DNA of 64,000 nt, taken from positions 96,001-160,000 of IMG/VR virus record IMGVR_UViG_3300047323_000304, one strand, 5' to 3'. Below the pieces are notes generated by a model that worked only from the letters and a program-made list of their open reading frames with translations, made no database searches and was not told the origin of the DNA. A program made the position numbers and the translations under genes. This DNA is from a virus. Below are positions 5,785-52,174 of the stretch, one piece after another; positions within the stretch are counted from its first letter, which is position 1; every line of letters begins with the position of its first letter.

Positions 5785-6096
5785 TTAATATAAGAAATCC
5801 CATTTATTAATTTTATGTATATGCTCTACTACAAATATTAGATTACTTTTAGTATTCTCAAACAACATATTACCATATGCCATAGGAATTTCTTTAATAT
5901 GTTGTTGTAGATAGCTATCAATCGTTAAATAATAGTCCTTTAATGTTTCTAATGTAACTAATTTAGCTTCACCATATTCTAGTTCTAATATAGATATTAT
6001 CTTCTCATATTTATCTTCTGTAGATTGATTTTTTAGTATAGTTTTATATTCTTCTAATAATTCCTGATATGTATTTACTCTTACCTTATCACTCAT
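5785..6096 (-). CDS. hypothetical protein
   Basis: ORF on dominant strand; no motif recognised. Confidence 0.6.
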   Translation of the reverse strand: MSDKVRVNTYQELLEEYKTILKNQSTEDKYEKIISILELEYGEAKLVTLETLKDYYLTIDSYLQQHIKEIPMAYGNMLFENTKSNLIFVVEHIHKINKWDFLY

Positions 6097-6109
6097 TTTA
6101 ACACCCTCT

Positions 6110-6406
6110 TTATTTAATTAAATTTTGAAATTTATAATCTTTTACCATATAATATTCAGAAGTATATTCCCATCCATTATCTCGCTCTACAACTACCCTT
6201 AAATGTTTTTCATCATTTATATCTGCTACAGTAATTTTGCCTTTAGGTTTCATTATTTTTTCCATAGTCCCTACAAATTCTTTCCTAATAGAATTATCAT
6301 TACTTAATATGTATTCCTTAAATTCTTCCCATTTTAAATCTTCAACTTTATACATACAACTTTGGAAATCTTCTTTGCTAATATTGTTTTGAATTATATA
6401 CATCAT
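6110..6406 (-). CDS. hypothetical protein
   Basis: ORF on dominant strand; no motif recognised. Confidence 0.6.
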   Translation of the reverse strand: MMYIIQNNISKEDFQSCMYKVEDLKWEEFKEYILSNDNSIRKEFVGTMEKIMKPKGKITVADINDEKHLRVVVERDNGWEYTSEYYMVKDYKFQNLIK

Positions 6407-6589
6407 ATCACCTTCTTTAATTAATTTATATTCTTTTTAATTTATTAAACCAATTAAAATTATTCTTTTAAGATATTGTTAAAAATCTTTTATAGATGCC
6501 TTTAAATACATTTCCTATCTTAATTCCATTTTCATATGTAGAATTTGAATATAATTTTAATGTTTCTAGTTTGCTAATATACATTTATT

Positions 6590-6799
6590 TCACTCTCCTT
6601 TTATTATAAACAACATATTTTTAACAATCTTAACTCCATCTTGAATGTCACCATCAATCCATACCTCTCGAATTATATTCATTGCTTCAAGAGTATCCTT
6701 ATATTCTCCATTTTCCTTTTTTAAGGTTTTATTGTATTTATTCATTATATCTTCTAAAAGTGCTAAAGAATATTTTACACTACTCATTTTGTTCACCAC
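6590..6799 (-). CDS. hypothetical protein
   Basis: ORF on dominant strand; no motif recognised. Confidence 0.55.
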   Translation of the reverse strand: MVNKMSSVKYSLALLEDIMNKYNKTLKKENGEYKDTLEAMNIIREVWIDGDIQDGVKIVKNMLFIIKGE

Positions 6800-6806
6800 C
6801 TTTTAC

Positions 6807-7208
6807 TTATAATTTAAATAATTTCTTAACTAATTTTCTAATACCTTTAATATCAGGATGATTTTTATACCATAACTTAATTTCTTCTGTGAGTTCTTGT
6901 TTTAATTTTTCTTTTTGTTCATTATCTTCAATGATATTAGAGCAACATTCATATAGTACATTATCTTTGGAAGTTCTTATAATTCCTCTTATTTTTACCA
7001 ATTTATTATCTTCTTCTATGTAAAAACTTTCTCCAGATTTCAATAATGGCATAGCTAAATTACATTCGAATTTATATTCTTCAGCTATTTCTTCTTGTTT
7101 GGAATGTATATACCTATTTGGCTTACTATCATCGTCATATTCTTTTTCATAAGTTTCTTTGAATTGTTTTTGTTTGAAAATACTTTTCTTTACTATAAAC
7201 TCTTCCAT
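6807..7208 (-). CDS. hypothetical protein
   Basis: ORF on dominant strand; no motif recognised. Confidence 0.6.
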   Translation of the reverse strand: MEEFIVKKSIFKQKQFKETYEKEYDDDSKPNRYIHSKQEEIAEEYKFECNLAMPLLKSGESFYIEEDNKLVKIRGIIRTSKDNVLYECCSNIIEDNEQKEKLKQELTEEIKLWYKNHPDIKGIRKLVKKLFKL

Positions 7209-7900
7209 TATTTATTTCTCCTTTATTCTCTTTATTTTATTTATTATAACTTGTACCACTTAGGTACTTCTTTAGTTTAACATAATTTTCTTTCTTTGTA
7301 AATAGTATTCTTTTTATTTTATCTTACTTAGATATTGGAGTTTCAAAAACAACTTTTATTGGTTCTTTTCCTATACTAGAAAATACTGTTCTGTCATTAT
7401 ACATTACAACTTTTGTACCTGAATTATGACTTTCTACCATAGTTGTAACTTTGTCATCTTCCATAATTACTGTTGATTTACTCATTATCATTCACTTCCT
7501 TTATTTAATTATTTAAGCTATAATTTGCTTAAAAGAACAGGCTAATTTACCATTTAGCTAATGTTCTCCGATATTAAATTTAATATCTACCCTTGAAATG
7601 TTCTATTTCTATTTGAGTATTTCTACTCTTTTAAGCAAACTGTTCTTTACTACTATCTTAGTATAATCTATCCAATTCTTATTGTCAAGTATTCTTTTTA
7701 ATTTATCTTGTTTTGATAAAACAGACTTTTTAACAACTCTTTATCCTTAAAAACTAGAGTATTTGCAAGCATTCAGTAGTATGAGTGAGGTTTAAAATTC
7801 ATATTTTTGTATTTTTATGTATTTTGACTTGTACACCTTGGCACTATTTCATTATAATGCCAAGATTATACAATATCATGTATTATTTTTATTTTGTCTT

Positions 7901-44678: not shown

Positions 44679-45275
44679 TTAATTCTCTTTTGTTTTCTTT
44701 ACATTATAAACAAATTCTAAATAATGCTTTCTACAATAGCCTTTAGCATAATATTTTCTATTACAATTTTCAGTTATGCAACTATTGGCTTTCATATATA
44801 AAGGATCGCTGTATATATGAAACTTTCTATAATGACTTTCACAATATCCATTAGAATATGATTTGTCATTACATTCATCTACTTGACAAACTTTCGGATA
44901 TTGTATCCTTTTTTCTACTTGCGTTACTTCTCCATATCTTTGTATTTGTGCATAATGTCTTTTACAATATCCCTTTGCTATAACCAAATCATTGCAACCA
45001 TCCACCTTACAAATAGAAATATCTTTTAAGCCTAATTTAAGATCCTTTTCTATTTTCAGTTTTCTTTGTGAAGTCCAATGAGACTTACATAAATTTTTAG
45101 CATAAGTAATTTTATCACAGCCATCTACTGAACATATTGTTTTTTCTCTTCCTAATTCTCTTTCTGGAGTCAATCTACCATGACGTATTATTTGGGTATG
45201 GTGTTTACTTCAATATCCATCATTTGTATGCCTTTCTTTATTACAACCTTCAACTTTACATGTATCATTTGTCAT
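44679..45275 (-). pseudogene. Cys/His repeat (C..DGC...GYC..HY) Zn-finger protein with an in-frame TGA at 45210-45212
   Basis: ATG at 45275 with GAGGTG RBS. It reads MTNDTCKVEGC...DGY*SKHH...RLTPERE, continuing in frame into the track ORF. Confidence 0.7.
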
Positions 45276-45517: not shown

Positions 45518-46040
45518 TTGATTTCTCCTCCTTTTTATCTTTTCTTATAAGCTAATTTAAAGTCACTGGCATAATGTCCTTAAATTAACCCACAATGGGC
45601 ATTAGCATTTGTTTATTATTAATTTTATCACATCTTTCTATGTATTAGTTATTGTTTTGCAATTCGTCCAATCTTTTTAACATATAATCAATCTCTTCTT
45701 GGGTTATAACTGTAGAAGAATAATTTTCTTCATTTGTTTGATCGTTATTTGAAAATATATCTTTAAATTTGTTTTTTATATTGGCTAAAAACATTTTTAT
45801 ATCACCTCCCTTCAATAACTCTTTAAATCCTCAATTTAAATTAAACTTATTCTCTTTATTTTATTATTTTTAATGCTTCTTGAATTTCTATATCAATATA
45901 ATCCGATTGCGTATGTATTCCTGTTAGCTTATTTAATATAATTAGACTTACTGCAAATATTATTACTTTTATCATTAAATTCACCTCTTTATTTTAGTTT
46001 ATTTATAATTAATTTTATATTGTTTCTAAGTTTATTTTTA

Positions 46041-46070
46041 AAGAGTAGACAAAATTATATGTCTACTCTT
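46041..46070. terminator. Hairpin downstream of the peptide gene (probable terminator)
   Basis: AAGAGTAGACA / TGTCTACTCTT, 11-bp perfect inverted repeat. Confidence 0.6.
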
Positions 46071-46089
46071 TCTTTGTCTTATGTATTTA

Positions 46090-46182
46090 TTACCCTCTAG
46101 TTGATGTTCCAGCCATTGCTACAACACTTGATAAAATCATAGTTGCAGTAATGATGAACATAATTAATGTTGCTTTTTTCAT
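46090..46182 (-). CDS. Secreted signalling pre-peptide (AimP/Phr-like), 30 aa; predicted mature GTSTRG; missing from ORF track
   Basis: MKKATLIMFIITATMILSSVVAMAGTSTRG*, with GAGGTG RBS. Basic N-region, hydrophobic H-region and an A-M-A signal peptidase site before the C-terminal hexapeptide. Confidence 0.8.
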   Translation of the reverse strand: MKKATLIMFIITATMILSSVVAMAGTSTRG

Positions 46183-46270
46183 TCGTTTCACCTCTTTCAT
46201 ATATGTATTATTAATATAGAGTTTTTTAATTATATCTATATTAACTTATACATATATGAAAGTGATTTTA

Positions 46271-46927
46271 CTATATAGCTTGTATTATATTACTTTGTTT
46301 TAATAACAATACCTTATTATATAATAATTCATTGACCGTTTTTATTTCTTTTATCAACTCATTAAATTTTTTTTCATATTCAGTATTGTTATTATGTAAA
46401 ATGTCCTCAAGTATCTCAAGGACTATGCTAAAATTTTCTTTTGCTAAATTTAGATCAAACTTTGCTACTAACTTATTTAAATATCCATTATCATTTTTAT
46501 CTTCAATATTTTCATAAATATGATAGCAAAATTCATAACCTTCTATTATTTCTTTTCTCGTCAATTCTTTCTTATGACTTTCAATATAATTAATTAATAC
46601 CCTAGCATATAAACAAGCATTATCCCCTTCTTTATAGCCTATTTCATTATCCATATCATTCTTTAATATTGATGTATAAAATTTTACTTGGCTCATTTCG
46701 TATACTTCTAATCCGTTTTTTCGTCCTATTTCTATCTCTGCTACAATCAAATTATGAAGTATCAATCTTCTTTCTTCTATATAAGTTAACATATCATATT
46801 CACTAAAATACATTTTTTTCAATTTATCTCTTGCCACTTCCACACCTTTATTATCCCAGTCATCAAAAATTTCTCCCAATACTCTTTTTTTTATAGTTTT
46901 CTTTTTTACCATCCTAAATTCACCCAC
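46271..46927 (-). CDS. Putative TPR-like (RRNPP/AimR-like) peptide receptor lacking an obvious HTH
   Basis: Amphipathic helical pattern with Asn/Tyr/Ala periodicity; directly upstream of the pre-peptide gene; fold inferred, not confirmed. Confidence 0.5.
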   Translation of the reverse strand: MGEFRMVKKKTIKKRVLGEIFDDWDNKGVEVARDKLKKMYFSEYDMLTYIEERRLILHNLIVAEIEIGRKNGLEVYEMSQVKFYTSILKNDMDNEIGYKEGDNACLYARVLINYIESHKKELTRKEIIEGYEFCYHIYENIEDKNDNGYLNKLVAKFDLNLAKENFSIVLEILEDILHNNNTEYEKKFNELIKEIKTVNELLYNKVLLLKQSNIIQAI

Positions 46928-46939
46928 TTCATAATTTAT

Positions 46940-47713
46940 TTACATAGCTATTTTTTCCTCTTTCTTTTCATACATTTTATAGTAATCTCTATAATTTAAT
47001 TTATTATCTTCACAAAACTTTTGTAGTGACCATAAAAACGCTTCTCTTTGTTCAAGTAGATTCTTTATTAAACTTTTATTTTTTGCTTTACTTAAAGCCT
47101 TTTCGTATGTGTATATATCATCTAGTATTTCCTCTATATTATCTTGCATATATTTTGGTAATCTCTCTAATGGAGTCTTTGGTTTTAATCTACCATTTTG
47201 TATTCTAATTGCTTGCTCAACTTGCTCCATTATATCCTCAGTCACAGTACCTATTTTATATTTAAATTGTGTTTTTTTATCTATTGGACATAACGTTTCT
47301 GCTAAAATAACTGATTTTTTCTTTAATCCACATTCTTCAAAATTATCTATTTCCACATGTATAGGTAACTTTGATTTACCTAATTGAGACGTAATTGCAC
47401 ATCCACTAATATTTGGACTATATCGGTTGTTTAATTCGTTCGAGGTAACTAAAAAAGGTCTAATTCCACCCTGAATAGAATGTCTTCCTGCTCCCAAATC
47501 AACTTGCCATATTTCATATTGTTTTATTTCTAAAGGTCTATTTACACTTTCCTTATAATTTATTTCCATAGTAACTTGAACTTTATCATTTTCAAGTTTA
47601 TTACTATGTACATTAATTGTCATCTTATCGTTATTTAATTTATTATCCACTTTAACCTCTTGTTCTTTTAACATTTGTAAAGCGTTCATACTTTTTTCAT
47701 TTAAATCTAACAC
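46940..47713 (-). CDS. mazF: MazF/PemK-family endoribonuclease with N- and C-terminal extensions
   Basis: Core EIWQVDLG...QGGIRPFLVTSN...NRYSP...CAITSQ..K.KLPIHVEID...SVILAE...IDK closely tracks B. subtilis MazF. The catalytic Arg and Thr equivalents are retained. Confidence 0.9.
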   Translation of the reverse strand: MLDLNEKSMNALQMLKEQEVKVDNKLNNDKMTINVHSNKLENDKVQVTMEINYKESVNRPLEIKQYEIWQVDLGAGRHSIQGGIRPFLVTSNELNNRYSPNISGCAITSQLGKSKLPIHVEIDNFEECGLKKKSVILAETLCPIDKKTQFKYKIGTVTEDIMEQVEQAIRIQNGRLKPKTPLERLPKYMQDNIEEILDDIYTYEKALSKAKNKSLIKNLLEQREAFLWSLQKFCEDNKLNYRDYYKMYEKKEEKIAM

Positions 47714-47773
47714 AGGTTTACCTCCTATAATTTAACTAGTTATTATTTTTATTTTGTTTCATCTGATAATCTA

Positions 47774-47890
47774 ATATTACCATGTCATTCCATTGTTGTC
47801 AATAACTTTTTAAATTATTTCTTTCATTATTTTTAATTTATTTGTTTCTTCCAATGAGTTAATAATACTATATATGGATTTATAAGTCAA
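47774..47890 (-). promoter_or_regulatory. Sigma-A promoter(s) upstream of mazF, with copies of the AT-rich phage motif
   Basis: TTGACA (47802-47797)-17-TAATAT (47779-47774), a second TTGACT at 47890-47885, and a TAAATTAAAAATAA copy near 47827-47843. Confidence 0.65.
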
Positions 47891-47948
47891 TACTTTTTGT
47901 TAAATATTTTTAATTCTTTTTATTTTATTATACACAGACAAAAAAGAA

Positions 47949-47972
47949 AGGGTTAGATATATTCTAAACCCT
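47949..47972 (-). terminator. Intrinsic terminator after the MrpR-like gene
   Basis: AGGGTTTAGA-loop-TCTAACCCT stem followed by a U-rich tract on the minus strand. Confidence 0.6.
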
Positions 47973-49218
47973 AGTTATTATATAATGTTTCATCTAATTC
48001 TACTATTGTATTATCTTGGGTAGGTGGACTTGCTTCTTTCAATATGACTCCATCTGAATCGACTTTCATACCATCGACTTCTTGTATTTCTTTATTTTCA
48101 AACTTTTCTTCCCCATTAATAAATTCTTGATATCCAATTGCTTCAATAATGTCTTCAACTACCTGTTTTGAAGCTGGATCTTTTAAAGGTTCTAATAATC
48201 TTCTAGCATTATTTCGATATACAATTTTATCTTTAGTTAATGATTGATAAAATTCTACTAAAGCAATCGTAATTTGTGGAGTATGAACTCCTTTAAAATT
48301 TAATTGCACCCATTGAATATCATCAATAGATAATTTTCTTTCTTTTCTCATATCAAGTAAATAATCCATATATCTAGATTTTAATAAATCTCCAATTGCA
48401 ATTCTTGGTACTTCCGCACCTTCACAAGCAAGGTATATTCTTGTATCAATTGTATGTCTACTAATAAGTAAACTACTATCATTTTGATTTTTCTTAGGTT
48501 TCTTTAATACATATCCAAAATCTTCTTCGTCAGTATCTAAACTAAGTTTATATTTATCTATCTGTTTAATAAACCTATCATCCACATCTAATATTCTTGG
48601 AGCTTTACCACTTTCTACAATACTTACTTGTTTCTTTTCATAATTTATATCATCCCATTGTAAACTTCTCATTTCAATTAATTCTTTACCTATTATTCCG
48701 TATCTAGCTAATAATAAAGGTATTGTATGACTTAGCTGTGACGTTTGTTCTATTTTAACTAATAGATTATAAAACTCTCCTAGTCCCCAAACTTTATTAA
48801 TTAATACGTTAACCATACTTTTAGTTGTGCTTTTTCTATCCATAGCTTTCACAGAATTATGTTTTATTTGTTTATTACTGACTCCCCAGTTTTTATATTG
48901 ACTAATGAAATTTATTATTTGATCTTTCATTGCAGGAGAATATTTAAATTTAGTTGCAATAACTTCATCAACTTCTATATTACTAAAAAACATTGCTTCT
49001 TTTCCTAATTGTATTTCATGCTCATTAATATGATTATTATAACATGACCACATGCTTTTTACTGTTACTTCATTATCATACAATTCATTTAAGAATTTAA
49101 GTTTATTGCCTTTTGTTTTATCATAATCTTTTAAAAAGTTTTCATAATCATGTTTTGATTCAGTAGTGAGAATTTTTGAATTATCAAGTTCATCAACAAT
49201 AAAATATTTATTCTTCAT
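47971..49218 (-). CDS. MrpR/YopR-like degenerate tyrosine-recombinase-fold regulator
   Basis: LLLARYGIIGKELIEMRSLQWDDI (box I-like, catalytic Arg absent) and IGDLLKSR (box II-like, H-x-x-R absent); follows a YopQ-like gene as in SPbeta. Confidence 0.6.
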   Translation of the reverse strand: MKNKYFIVDELDNSKILTTESKHDYENFLKDYDKTKGNKLKFLNELYDNEVTVKSMWSCYNNHINEHEIQLGKEAMFFSNIEVDEVIATKFKYSPAMKDQIINFISQYKNWGVSNKQIKHNSVKAMDRKSTTKSMVNVLINKVWGLGEFYNLLVKIEQTSQLSHTIPLLLARYGIIGKELIEMRSLQWDDINYEKKQVSIVESGKAPRILDVDDRFIKQIDKYKLSLDTDEEDFGYVLKKPKKNQNDSSLLISRHTIDTRIYLACEGAEVPRIAIGDLLKSRYMDYLLDMRKERKLSIDDIQWVQLNFKGVHTPQITIALVEFYQSLTKDKIVYRNNARRLLEPLKDPASKQVVEDIIEAIGYQEFINGEEKFENKEIQEVDGMKVDSDGVILKEASPPTQDNTIVELDETLYNN

Positions 49219-50629
49219 TAGAAACCACTTCCTTTGCTATTTTTTCAAAGAAATTATACACATTCTTTACACTAACACCTTTATTAATTAATTTCAATGG
49301 AATTAGTTCTTCTTCAGTTAATGATATTATTTTATTAGAAATTTTCATTAATACATCATCATAATTTTTTAGTTCATGTAGTATATTCGCAACTGCTAAA
49401 TAGCCTATGAAAATGTTAATATCGGCTAAATGTGTTTTATTTATTAAATTATGCATTGTTCCATACTTCATTATAAATGATTCAAACAAATCATCAATTA
49501 CCATTGCCATTTTCCCAGCAGTCATTCGTCTGTTTAATCTGTTGTTAACTTGAATATTAGTACACATTTTTTCTATTGTTTCACTCAAAATAGCTGAATA
49601 AGTTAAATGCCCTTGGTTAGCAAAATAAGATTCATAACTTTTTGATACCTTCTCTTTCAATGTTTCTGATTGTTCAATTAATGCTTCAATAAACATATTG
49701 TAATCACTATTTTCCAATTGACTTAACCAATCTGCTGAAGTGTCTGTTCTTTTAAATATTTGATTTACAATATTCTTACTACCTTGTAAATCTCTTATAG
49801 TTAATTTCAAAGGAAATCCTTTTTTATCAAGTGTTTTGCCCATTTTATAAGCTTCTTCATAAGCTAAAACTCCAGCTAAGGTTCTATGCATACCATCTAA
49901 TGGATTTACTACAGTATAATTATTAGAAGTTCTATCATAGTTTGGCGTAACTTCTACATCACAAATAGTCTCAGTACCATATTTTAGTGTTTCTCTTACT
50001 TGTAAAACATTTTTAGAATTCTCTTGATTTAAAACATTATATATTAACATATCTTCTTCATATGTTCCAGCAATAATAGATTTTGCTATTTCCATTTTAG
50101 CTTTATCATTTATTGAATAAGTTTCAAAGGTTATTTTTTTATCTCCAGTTCCAATAGTTTGATAAACTGGCTCTCTTTGTGCTTCAAAATTATAGATTAA
50201 TAATGTGTTACTATACCAATTATATATGTCAGATATTGGAGCGTAGCCCAAGTAATTATAATCATCAATTTTTATTGCATCTTTTATGAATATAGAATTG
50301 ACTTCTTTTATTTCTTTAACTGCACTATCATATCTAACTAATACGTCATCAGAGAACCATTTGTTAATATCTAATATCTCCATATCAGGAAGTCCATCAT
50401 GTGCTCCATCAACAAAAGCAATTTTTTCATATTCAGATAAGGTTTGCCATTGCTTTTCGCCACCAAATAACGAAGACATTAATCTTATGTTAAGATTCTT
50501 TTCTCTAAATTTCTTAGTAATTGCATCTGAGAGTTTTTTATTTTTATATTGTTCTTTTAATATTTCATTTATAACCTCGAATTGTTTTTCTTCAGGTACT
50601 AAGTCTTTTATATTTTTAATTTCATTCAT
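49208..50629 (-). CDS. YopQ-like protein with a ParB/DndB-type DGxHR motif
   Basis: NPLDGMHRTLA; YNFEAQR; 473 aa; coupled to the MrpR-like gene. Confidence 0.55.
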   Translation of the reverse strand: MNEIKNIKDLVPEEKQFEVINEILKEQYKNKKLSDAITKKFREKNLNIRLMSSLFGGEKQWQTLSEYEKIAFVDGAHDGLPDMEILDINKWFSDDVLVRYDSAVKEIKEVNSIFIKDAIKIDDYNYLGYAPISDIYNWYSNTLLIYNFEAQREPVYQTIGTGDKKITFETYSINDKAKMEIAKSIIAGTYEEDMLIYNVLNQENSKNVLQVRETLKYGTETICDVEVTPNYDRTSNNYTVVNPLDGMHRTLAGVLAYEEAYKMGKTLDKKGFPLKLTIRDLQGSKNIVNQIFKRTDTSADWLSQLENSDYNMFIEALIEQSETLKEKVSKSYESYFANQGHLTYSAILSETIEKMCTNIQVNNRLNRRMTAGKMAMVIDDLFESFIMKYGTMHNLINKTHLADINIFIGYLAVANILHELKNYDDVLMKISNKIISLTEEELIPLKLINKGVSVKNVYNFFEKIAKEVVSNEE

Positions 50630-50754: not shown

Positions 50755-51015
50755 TTATTCACGATACAACACATTATAATCACCATTTGTATATAGGACT
50801 TTAACTGTAATCATATTTTCTATGTAATAAATTTCTTTAATTTCAGACTCATTTAATTCGTTTAGTATTTCATCATAAGGAACATCTCTTCTTATAAATC
50901 CTTTTGAATCAACAACTTTTAAACCTTCAATACTTTGTTTTAGAAAATTGTTTTCAAAATCACTCCTTGTTATTTCTTGTCCTATTTCTTTAAACTCATG
51001 TTTTTGCATCTCCAT
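50755..51015 (-). CDS. hypothetical protein
   Basis: ORF on dominant strand. Confidence 0.55.
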   Translation of the reverse strand: MEMQKHEFKEIGQEITRSDFENNFLKQSIEGLKVVDSKGFIRRDVPYDEILNELNESEIKEIYYIENMITVKVLYTNGDYNVLYRE

Positions 51016-51266: not shown

Positions 51267-51485
51267 TTGAAAATTGCACAAATGGTTAAAATGAAACTAC
51301 ACATGTTGCTTGCTGAACATGGCATCACACAAAAACAACTATCTACTGCTACAGGTATACGACAAGGAACTATAAGTTCATACGCATCAAATAATTTTAA
51401 GCATCTAGTAAGAAATCATATTAATATACTTTGTACATATTTTAACTGTGATGTTTCAGACTTAATACAATTTAAGAAAGATTAA
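51267..51485 (+). CDS. XRE/Cro-C1 HTH transcriptional regulator
   Basis: ITQKQLSTATGIRQGTISSY...LCTYFNCDVSDL; GGAG RBS. Confidence 0.9.
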   Translation: MKIAQMVKMKLHMLLAEHGITQKQLSTATGIRQGTISSYASNNFKHLVRNHINILCTYFNCDVSDLIQFKKD

Positions 51486-51793: not shown

Positions 51794-52174
51794 ATGTACA
51801 TACGTGCATTTTTTGTCGAAAGAAGGGTGATAATTATAAACAAAAGAATATTAAAAGAACCAGAGCGTGGACAATATGAAATACTTTTTAAACATTTTAG
51901 AAATTTTAGACATATGACACAAGAAGAACTGGCTTTTTTAGTTAAAATTGCTCCTAGTTATCTTTCAATGTTTGAACAGAATAATACTACTAGAACTCGT
52001 TCTCCTAAATTGAATTTAATTAGAGATGTTGCTTTTGCCCTGAATGTTTGTCCAAATGATATAATATATTTTCCTTGCAAAACCTGTGAAATGAAGGATA
52101 GTTGTGTAAGAAAAAAACAGGTCATTGATGATGACCATAACTTTGAAAATATTATTAATTACTACCTTGAATAA
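51794..52174 (+). CDS. XRE HTH regulator with C-terminal Cys cluster
   Basis: MTQEELAFLVKIAPSYLSMFE...VAFALNV; CKTCEMKDSC. Confidence 0.85.
   Translation: MYIRAFFVERRVIIINKRILKEPERGQYEILFKHFRNFRHMTQEELAFLVKIAPSYLSMFEQNNTTRTRSPKLNLIRDVAFALNVCPNDIIYFPCKTCEMKDSCVRKKQVIDDDHNFENIINYYLE

Follow-up and report, generated by a model that had tools for sequence, protein, structure and literature searches.

A conserved mazF-TPR-peptide cassette beside a putative lysogeny module of large AT-rich phages, possibly a peptide-signalling unit wired to a phage MazF

We describe a group of minus-strand genes in a stretch of 64,000 nucleotides (the window; positions 96,001 to 160,000) of the IMG/VR virus record IMGVR_UViG_3300047323_000304, a phage record of 193,897 bp with 26% G+C and a completeness of 78% (CheckV estimate). 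Read along the minus strand, the region carries a YopQ-like gene, an MrpR/YopR-like gene, a hairpin with a T-run, two promoters, and then the genes of a MazF-like protein, of a protein resembling tetratricopeptide repeat (TPR) proteins, and of a small pre-peptide (Table 1). An earlier note, made from the DNA letters, had taken the last three genes for an arbitrium-like communication unit coupled to a toxin and driven by its own sigma-A promoter. The three open reading frames (ORFs) are present on the minus strand, at 46940-47713, 46271-46927, and 46090-46182, and promoter-like sites do precede them, as a tandem of two instead of the single promoter that had been claimed.

Table 1. Features of the mazF-TPR-peptide unit and of its immediate neighbours, in window coordinates
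Feature	Position	Strand	Remarks
MazF-like protein, 257 amino acids	46940-47713	-	GTG at 47713 behind AGGAGG ribosome-binding site
PemK/MazF nuclease domain, residues 64-171	47201..47524	-	Pfam PF02452 (PemK_toxin) at 2.4e-20
MazF C-terminal extension, residues ~178-257	46943..47182	-	helical hairpin and tail ending IA[MIL]; proposed TPR adaptor
TPR-like protein, 213 amino acids (218 from GTG at 46927)	46271..46912	-	candidate peptide receptor and MazF partner
Pre-peptide, 30 amino acids, MKKATLIMFIITATMILSSVVAMA followed by GTSTRG	46090..46182	-	best start ATG 46182, seven bases after GAGGTGA
Two-tier hairpin (15 + 11 bp), 77 nt	46190..46266	-	between TPR stop codon and peptide gene
Terminator-like hairpin, 12-bp stem	46040..46071	-	closes the unit; about three U after it on the transcribed strand
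Two tandem sigma-A-type promoters	47774..47890	-	each 10/12 consensus positions; consensus matches only
Promoter 1	47890-47862	-	TTGACT-17-TATTAT
Promoter 2, extended -10 TG	47802-47774	-	TTGACA-17-(TG)TAATAT
17-nt element ATAAAATAAAAAGAATA, one copy	47909..47925	-	repeated across the phage record
Terminator-like hairpin and T-run after MrpR-like gene	47940..47970	-	sequence reading; splits MrpR-like gene from MazF unit
MrpR/YopR-like protein, tyrosine-recombinase fold, 415 amino acids	47971..49218	-	context gene
YopQ-like protein, 473 amino acids, DGMHR motif	49208..50629	-	phrog_5732 at 3.4e-25; SPbeta-type lysogeny context gene

The first gene of the unit encodes a protein that, by sequence and structural model, belongs to the MazF family and appears to have kept the equivalents of its catalytic residues, as expected for the phage-encoded, extended MazF of the earlier note. 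It scores 73.2 bits against PF02452, for a cut-off of 23.1 bits, and matches B. subtilis EndoA/YdcE and S. aureus MazF among PDB sequences, both at ~2e-18. Its model superposes on MazF-mt1 (Z 18.1, root-mean-square deviation 2.3 over 113 residues) and on S. aureus MazF (Z 17.5). R85 and T108 align with R25 and T48 of EndoA, which we take, from structural work on EndoA, to be the catalytic residues, and both are invariant in 12 family members. Residues 1-60 are variable, of low complexity, and modelled with low confidence. An N-terminal match to NatCom phages was dismissed because it runs over two annotated genes and was judged to be of low complexity.

The C-terminal extension of MazF is modelled as two helices, at residues 187-209 and 213-236, with a predicted local distance difference test score (pLDDT) of ~90. 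A fold search with this extension returned generic helical-hairpin and coiled-coil matches, among which no likeness to a solved antitoxin was seen. The extension was found only in this MazF subfamily and in CST027 of phage c-st, and gave no tblastn match in the plasmid collection. No MazE/AbrB-type gene (PF04014) was found in the 194-kb record, which is 78% complete, the control genomes being positive; the genes adjoining mazF are those of the TPR protein and of the MrpR-like protein. With no MazE gene, and with conserved promoters close to consensus, a neutralising partner is to be expected for an intact MazF, and the TPR protein is the obvious candidate for this inhibitor.

The second protein is likely to start at the ATG at 46912, because this Met is where all homologues begin, and the entry in the collection likewise has 213 amino acids. 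The helical protein of 218 amino acids described in the earlier note is therefore a real ORF and is predicted to be helical, with a probable start five codons downstream. The AlphaFold2 (AF2) model, built from 13 homologues, has a pLDDT of 91 and shows ten helices forming five TPR-like repeats. All of its leading structural matches are TPR proteins, including 3gw4 (Z 12.5), kinesin light chain (KLC, Z 12.4-12.5), BtubC (in the same range of 12.4-12.5), RapI (Z 12.4), and NprR (Z 10.5), and the alignment with RapI is restricted to residues 134-372, its TPR domain. The best Foldseek match is the TPR region of KLC (E 7e-3), a shape search of the ESM Atlas agrees with a TPR fold, and a viral structure library returned weak, generic TPR or Sel1 rows.

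No family match was obtained for the TPR protein in Pfam, PHROG, or PADLOC. No helix-turn-helix (HTH) family reached threshold among the 44 family members, all 213 amino acids being occupied by TPR-like helices, and neither an HTH nor a Rap three-helix bundle is present as effector domain. A profile of the 44 sequences, taken to an E value of 10, found no match to Rap, NprR, PlcR, PrgX, Rgg, or AimR in Pfam or among PDB sequences. The description of an HTH-less, TPR-like protein thus holds at the level of the predicted fold, from AF2 and the fold searches, and its likeness to the RRNPP receptors amounts to an analogy. DUF6707, suggested by a language-model atlas (score 0.92), is kept as no more than a lead, since no member of the TPR family matches that hidden Markov model.

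The small ORF that ends the unit very probably yields a secreted hexapeptide. Its predicted signal-peptidase site (AMA/G) leaves GTSTRG (codons 46093-46110), and the ORF is followed by a hairpin, both as the earlier note had stated. The same design is shared by all nine related small ORFs, which start ~40-100 nt past the stop codon of the candidate receptor and come from loci spanning ~25-70% receptor identity. Each begins with ten residues that include two to four Lys or Arg, continues into a hydrophobic core (hydropathy 2.2-2.9 on the Kyte-Doolittle scale over 12 residues), and has the motif [AVI]x[AS] placed so that exactly six residues follow it. As judged from these sequences, cleavage by signal peptidase would free the hexapeptide directly, without a pro-region.

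One receptor clade is associated with the tails GTSTRG, GTTSRG, TTSSRG, GSIGRG, and TGSSRG, and the GPPTHG locus forms a long branch beside this xxxxRG clade. The other clade has the tails SGSPRC, SGGGWG, and SGNGWG (class SG[GN]GWG). The peptide class appears broadly to follow the receptor phylogeny, which bears on the co-diversification of receptor and peptide that had been proposed as a check. The receptor residues W24-D25 are present only in loci with an Arg-containing peptide.

A word-indexed search retrieved 13 relatives of the TPR protein, and an exhaustive, length-free profile search of 1.8 billion representatives retrieved 46 clusters at 50% identity, with lengths of ~200-229 amino acids. 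As no cluster exceeds 229 amino acids, there are no longer or fused forms, and free-standing forms were absent from the same 1.8 billion representatives. An extended MazF (PemK) gene precedes the TPR gene by 10-31 nt in 13 of the 13 loci with upstream context, over receptor identities of ~21-70%. Loci with upstream sequence keep one order: divergent XRE gene(s), a gene of ~85-105 codons, YopQ-like, MrpR-like, extended PemK, TPR, and small ORF. Joint conservation of the three genes had been named beforehand as one of the points on which the proposal depended, and they are indeed found in the same order across loci.

Independent metagenomic contigs show the same gene order and peptide design again, even where receptor identity falls to ~25%, and for this reason we reject a chance ORF or an artefact. 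Carriers include viral contigs of 115-135 kb, which is the size range of SPbeta-like phages. The family comes from metagenomes only, no tblastn match being found in the isolate phage or plasmid collections; searches of genome contigs and metagenome contigs with the TPR alignment brought nothing further, and those of viral contigs brought a locus already known and one other (L020, via the MazF alignment). The cassette is almost certainly a real, conserved functional unit.

We compared the histories of the genes through their pairwise identities. Over 11 loci (55 pairs), the identity of the MazF C-terminal extension follows that of the TPR protein closely (Mantel r=0.92, p=1e-4), whereas the PemK core does not (Mantel r=0.20), nor does the MrpR-like protein (Mantel r=0.22); the value for the YopQ-like protein is 0.49 (a plain correlation over 36 pairs). 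In windows of 30 residues along MazF, the correlation with the TPR protein is at most 0.33 up to residue ~190, 0.64 for residues 171-200, and 0.82-0.94 beyond, and the distal third of the TPR protein still correlates with the extension at 0.89. Single comparisons show the same: between our window and L001, identity is 41% in PemK, 81% in the extension, and 69% in the TPR protein, and between L001 and L009 it is 70%, 33%, and 34%, respectively.

At the DNA level, blastn aligned the window with L005, L001, and L002 in only one long homology block each. All three blocks start at 47180, corresponding to MazF residue ~178, and end at 46040, 46187, and 46033, respectively, with ~75-76% identity. The blocks of L005 and L002 reach the hairpin after the peptide gene, and that of L001 stops just before the start of the pre-peptide. 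These shared blocks and the identity correlations lead us to the conclusion that extension, TPR protein, hairpin, and peptide behave as one exchangeable cassette whose 5' edge is the domain junction within mazF. The nuclease core of MazF has a different history from the cassette, as have the YopQ and MrpR genes.

Linkage that depends on distance fails to explain this pattern, since sequence 30-100 bp upstream is uncoupled and sequence 600 bp downstream is coupled; selection for a cognate set of extension and TPR protein, perhaps with the peptide, explains it. Such co-inheritance would be indirect support for an interaction between MazF and the TPR protein. A complex prediction with two MazF and one TPR protein scored 0.00 without controls and counts neither for nor against binding.

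The unit lies directly downstream of the YopQ-like and MrpR-like genes, as the earlier note had read it, and these likely assignments draw on matches in PHROG, on Pfam scores, and on homologues in phage c-st. The YopQ-like protein has a weak full-length similarity to CST029 of c-st, annotated as a YopQ homologue (E 6e-4), and a gene of 459-487 codons occupies this position in every locus with context. The MrpR/YopR-like protein reaches 25.2 bits on Pfam MrpR_N_CB, slightly below the 27-bit cut-off, matches an integrase family (phrog_5830, 7e-13) and CST030, annotated as a yopR homologue (E 3e-9), and its orthologues in relatives match both MrpR_N_CB and MrpR_C_cat. An 86-codon gene at 50755-51015 (-) heads the YopQ-like operon, and two genes of the XRE/Cro-C1 HTH type, at 51267-51485 (+) and 51794-52174 (+), are divergent from it; this layout of XRE and head genes recurs in relatives.

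On the other side of the unit, a conserved micro-protein of 38-39 amino acids (45856-45975, -) is hydrophobic in its N-terminal half and has an E-LKIIK motif towards its C-terminus. It follows the peptide-gene hairpin directly in the window and in L002 (6016-6135) and lies one to several genes further on elsewhere (L001, 7936-8055; L005, 6705-6824; L009, 4592-4711; L003, 7622-7738), so it is not placed consistently, unlike aimX. Beyond it, a protein of 164 amino acids (44679-45173, -) is made of three repeated Cys-rich units similar to zinc fingers and matches phrog_5351 'HNH endonuclease' (6e-35) and Pfam DUF5763 and Zf_WRKY19. Its sequence suggests a repeat protein that binds DNA and not an entire HNH nuclease.

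Two or three promoters like those of Table 1 occur at the same place in most of ten relatives, with the design AAAAAGTrTTGACA-N17-TAnnAT, and one occurs in L008, which has the shortest spacer. The regions between the MrpR-like and MazF genes are at 47714-47970 in the window, 3871-4150 in L001, 3652-4014 in L005, 3883-4170 in L011, and 2857-3146 in L016. A G+C-rich hairpin (e.g. GGTTGAGGGA...CTCAACC) separates the promoters in L001, L005, L011, and L016, which hints at regulated read-through or an operator. The hairpin with T-run after the MrpR-like gene recurs at the same place in ten other loci, and the consensus terminator scan gave no call at 47940-47970.

The 17-nt element beside the promoters has a 13-nt core, AAATAAAAAGAAT, with 18 copies in 193.9 kb, most of which extend to the 17-mer. 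Further copies of the core are found, for example, at 7319, 5720, 18076, 57874, and 66552 in window coordinates, and several stand 2-6 nt upstream of a TTGACA-like -35 box. The 17-nt repeat is not shared at the sequence level with the related loci. A possible function is that of an UP-element, or of a site for a phage regulator comparable to SPBRE in SPbeta; MrpR binds this repeated element, also at the aimR promoter, and has the arbitrium promoter under its control (PMC10516654).

Between the TPR and peptide genes, the two-tier hairpin extends with its 3' arm into the ribosome-binding site of the peptide gene, GAAAGAGGTGA, and the hairpin segment folds at -27.7 kcal/mol. A stretch of 261 nt comprising this hairpin, the peptide gene, and the following hairpin is far more stable than its shuffles (z=-7.4, 0/200 as good). 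The two-tier hairpin is kept in seven loci (the window, L001, L002, L003, L005, L008, and L017), for which RNAalifold gives 29 pairs, including 10 that show compensatory changes. L009, L011, and L020 lack it, and Rfam has no match to it. A probable role is to modulate how the peptide cistron is translated or processed. Relatives have a counterpart of the hairpin that closes the unit, placed likewise and varying in its T-tract.

The pentamer UACAU, which we take to be the cleavage motif of B. subtilis MazF, occurs in the 3' arm upstream of the peptide ribosome-binding site (46193-46215, -) in the window, L002, L005, and L008 and not in that of L001, L003, and L017. Its occurrence may be a coincidence in AT-rich sequence. 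A role of the MazF-like protein in processing phage transcripts, weighed below, would also agree with a preprint that reports MazF sites as enriched in 3T and SPbeta transcripts (bioRxiv 10.1101/2023.04.27.537455).

We hypothesize that this conserved cassette of large AT-rich phages with a putative SPbeta-type lysogeny module is a peptide-signalling unit wired to a phage MazF, a tentative reading that we regard as quite possible and as falling a little short of probable. Two of its parts can be graded separately: the TPR protein is probably the receptor of the hexapeptide, and, by a narrow balance, we favour that it partners MazF through the C-terminal extension. Two tandem, strong-looking promoters would drive MazF, the TPR protein, a structured RNA or DNA hairpin, and a Sec-type pre-peptide. 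The hexapeptide would be secreted, build up with the number of infections, be re-imported by the host oligopeptide permease, and bind to the concave face of the TPR protein. The latter would grip MazF by the cognate extension and so set its activity, acting like a Rap-type receptor, by contact that the peptide relieves, and like AimX and YosL, the MazF inhibitors of phi3T. The direction that we favour is a guess based on phi3T: the peptide-free TPR protein would restrain MazF and the peptide would release it, leading to lysogeny or dormancy, or to a block of superinfection.

A bolder form of this hypothesis, which we offer as speculative, would make the cassette the first pheromone-gated toxin module, in which a five-repeat TPR protein serves as a peptide-switchable antitoxin on a phage MazF via a co-evolving adaptor. 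The imported hexapeptide would release or lock the grip of the TPR protein on MazF. The phage would in this way count infections and execute the decision between lysis and lysogeny, or on dormancy, with its own toxin, unlike phi3T, which uses the host MazEF, and the cassette of adaptor, TPR protein, and peptide would be exchangeable between MazF cores, defining 'pherotypes'.

Several observations weigh against a signalling unit that acts on MazF. The TPR protein has no sequence homology to any RRNPP receptor and about half their repeats, five against the roughly nine of RRNPPA receptors (PMC12700828), and TPR folds are generic protein-binding scaffolds. The small ORFs downstream in the distant loci L011 and L012 and in the truncated L016 do not fit the design of signal and hexapeptide, which is therefore not universal in the TPR family. 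Co-inheritance of adjacent DNA can arise by recombination in the linker without any contact between the proteins, and the breakpoint at 47180, common to three comparisons, may reflect a single event in the lineage of the window. Moreover, c-st has an extended MazF without TPR protein or peptide, so the extension does not require either.

The TPR protein and the peptide could be a genuine communication pair with a target other than MazF, namely the MrpR-like protein, the YopQ-like protein, or a host factor. Here the TPR protein could be an anti-repressor that the peptide relieves, comparable to Rap_pLS20 in its action on Rco_pLS20, and MazF would have a separate function in lysogeny or defence. 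The unit is always directly beside the YopQ/MrpR pair, and the extended MazF of c-st stands without TPR protein or peptide; HTH-less Rap receptors are also reported to have varied protein targets, including the pLS20 repressor (PMC7641744). Nevertheless, TPR identity tracks the MrpR-like (r=0.22) and YopQ-like (r=0.49) proteins poorly in comparison with the C-terminal extension (0.92), the unit has its own promoters and is divided by a terminator from the MrpR-like gene, and the edge of the cassette falls within mazF and not between genes. We consider this alternative unlikely.

We regard it as improbable, too, that MazF and the TPR protein form an ordinary toxin-antitoxin, addiction, or superinfection-exclusion pair in which the TPR protein is an unconventional antitoxin or chaperone and the small ORF encodes a membrane micro-protein or an unrelated secreted peptide that the TPR protein does not sense. 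An orphan MazF with intact catalytic residues, in a record where no MazE gene was found, and the tight spacing of toxin and partner would suit such a pair. An addiction module is plausible in phage c-st, which is presumably maintained as a plasmid prophage. The unrelated partner of 218 amino acids in c-st also fits antitoxin swapping, a promiscuity that is a theme of PMC10440598. Against such a pair stand the small ORFs, all nine of which keep a cleavage site six residues from the C-terminus and diversify in those six residues by receptor clade. In addition, two of the three DNA comparisons place the peptide gene within the co-inherited cassette, and the conserved hairpin couples it to the TPR gene.

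Very unlikely, finally, is a MazF-like protein that processes phage transcripts (e.g. the pre-peptide hairpin), with the TPR protein as scaffold and the cassette regulating peptide production: a conserved long hairpin does overlap the peptide ribosome-binding site and has UACAU in its 3' arm in 4/7 loci, but MazF enzymes cut single-stranded RNA and not stems, the motif is missing in 3/7 loci, and L009, L011, and L020 keep MazF, TPR protein, and small ORF without the hairpin.

To our knowledge, arbitrium of Bacillus phages is the only case of phage peptide communication that has been worked out in detail. If a signalling unit wired to MazF is the right reading, phage peptide signalling would extend to uncultured large AT-rich phages that resemble clostridial phages. 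Existing detectors of RRNPP systems may well miss this receptor family, because it is short, has no TPR match in Pfam, and has no HTH. The layout suggests a much shorter circuit, in which one operon encodes the receptor, the signal, and the toxin that executes the decision, this toxin carrying a swappable adaptor. It would also be a model for the merging of toxin-antitoxin biology and quorum sensing, and would provide a compact, peptide-controlled RNase switch that could possibly be used as a tool.

Among known systems, arbitrium is the first to compare. The earlier note had stated that arbitrium acts partly through the host MazEF system, and an action through the host MazF is borne out for phi3T: AimX and YosL bind and inhibit the host MazF, a high AimP signal turns aimX off so that MazF activity promotes lysogeny, and lysogeny requires MazF activity (PMC10769878; bioRxiv 10.1101/2023.04.27.537455). 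The layout of mazF, TPR gene, and peptide gene had been put forward as undescribed, and no description of it was found in the literature searched on arbitrium or quorum sensing with MazF or toxin-antitoxin systems. MazF is unmentioned in the RRNPP surveys PMC10075063 and PMC9765709, in the structural phylogeny PMC12700828, and in a preprint on viral quorum sensing.

Like arbitrium of SPbeta and phi3T, the present cassette is phage-encoded, would produce a C-terminal hexapeptide from a Sec-type pre-peptide, has a candidate receptor with TPR-like repeats, and stands beside a putative YopQ/MrpR(YopR) lysogeny module. The hexapeptides share small penultimate or last residues (here xxxx[RWH]G), and the output of phi3T through inhibition of the MazF toxin recalls the one proposed here. 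The receptor here has 213 amino acids, five repeats, no HTH, and no detectable homology to AimR, so that there is no HTH-TPR antiterminator, and no equivalent of AimX is consistently found downstream. MazF is encoded by the phage and has a dedicated C-terminal domain, and the peptide would need only signal peptidase, with no pro-region. The order here is yopQ-mrpR-mazF-TPR-peptide, whereas in SPbeta aimR-aimP-aimX is followed by yopM through yopR.

With the Rap-Phr systems (Rap-Phr of phi3T and the Rap anti-repressor of pLS20), the cassette shares an HTH-less TPR receptor and a proposed protein contact relieved by an imported peptide, and RapI, matched through its TPR domain at Z 12.4, ranks with the top structural hits. 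Rap proteins, with 359 residues in the RapI structure, far exceed the TPR protein in length, have no sequence homology to it, and carry an N-terminal three-helix-bundle effector domain before the TPR repeats, which is absent here. Phr pro-peptides need extra processing, and the hexapeptide here would not. With MazEF/PemIK (EndoA-EndoAI and S. aureus MazEF), the common features are the PemK fold (Z 17.5-18.1), PF02452, and the invariant equivalents of the catalytic residues. Here, however, a MazE gene is missing, the toxin gene, with its N- and C-terminal extensions, stands first, and the adjacent partner is a TPR protein.

Another close system is the pair CST027-CST028 of phage c-st (NC_007581). 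CST027 is an extended MazF that aligns over residues 55-257, including the extension, with 29% identity, and is followed by a protein of 218 amino acids, immediately beside YopQ and YopR homologues. By contrast, CST028 shows no relation to the TPR family and has no signal-peptide ORF after it, and the pair is upstream of yopQ-yopR and not downstream. That CST028 is a divergent TPR protein was ruled out (hhalign probability 0.25). The pair is at 5977-7506 of NC_007581 (L015), and CST028 has no Pfam family. It may represent a second, TPR-free version of a MazF and its partner tied to an SPbeta-type lysogeny module; the c-st layout means that the association of extended MazF with the lysogeny module is broader than the pair of TPR protein and peptide, and the partner position after the extended MazF appears to be swappable. 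The cassette described here lies outside RRNPP, arbitrium, and MazEF proper as these systems are delimited, and resembles arbitrium or Rap-Phr combined with a toxin-antitoxin pair.

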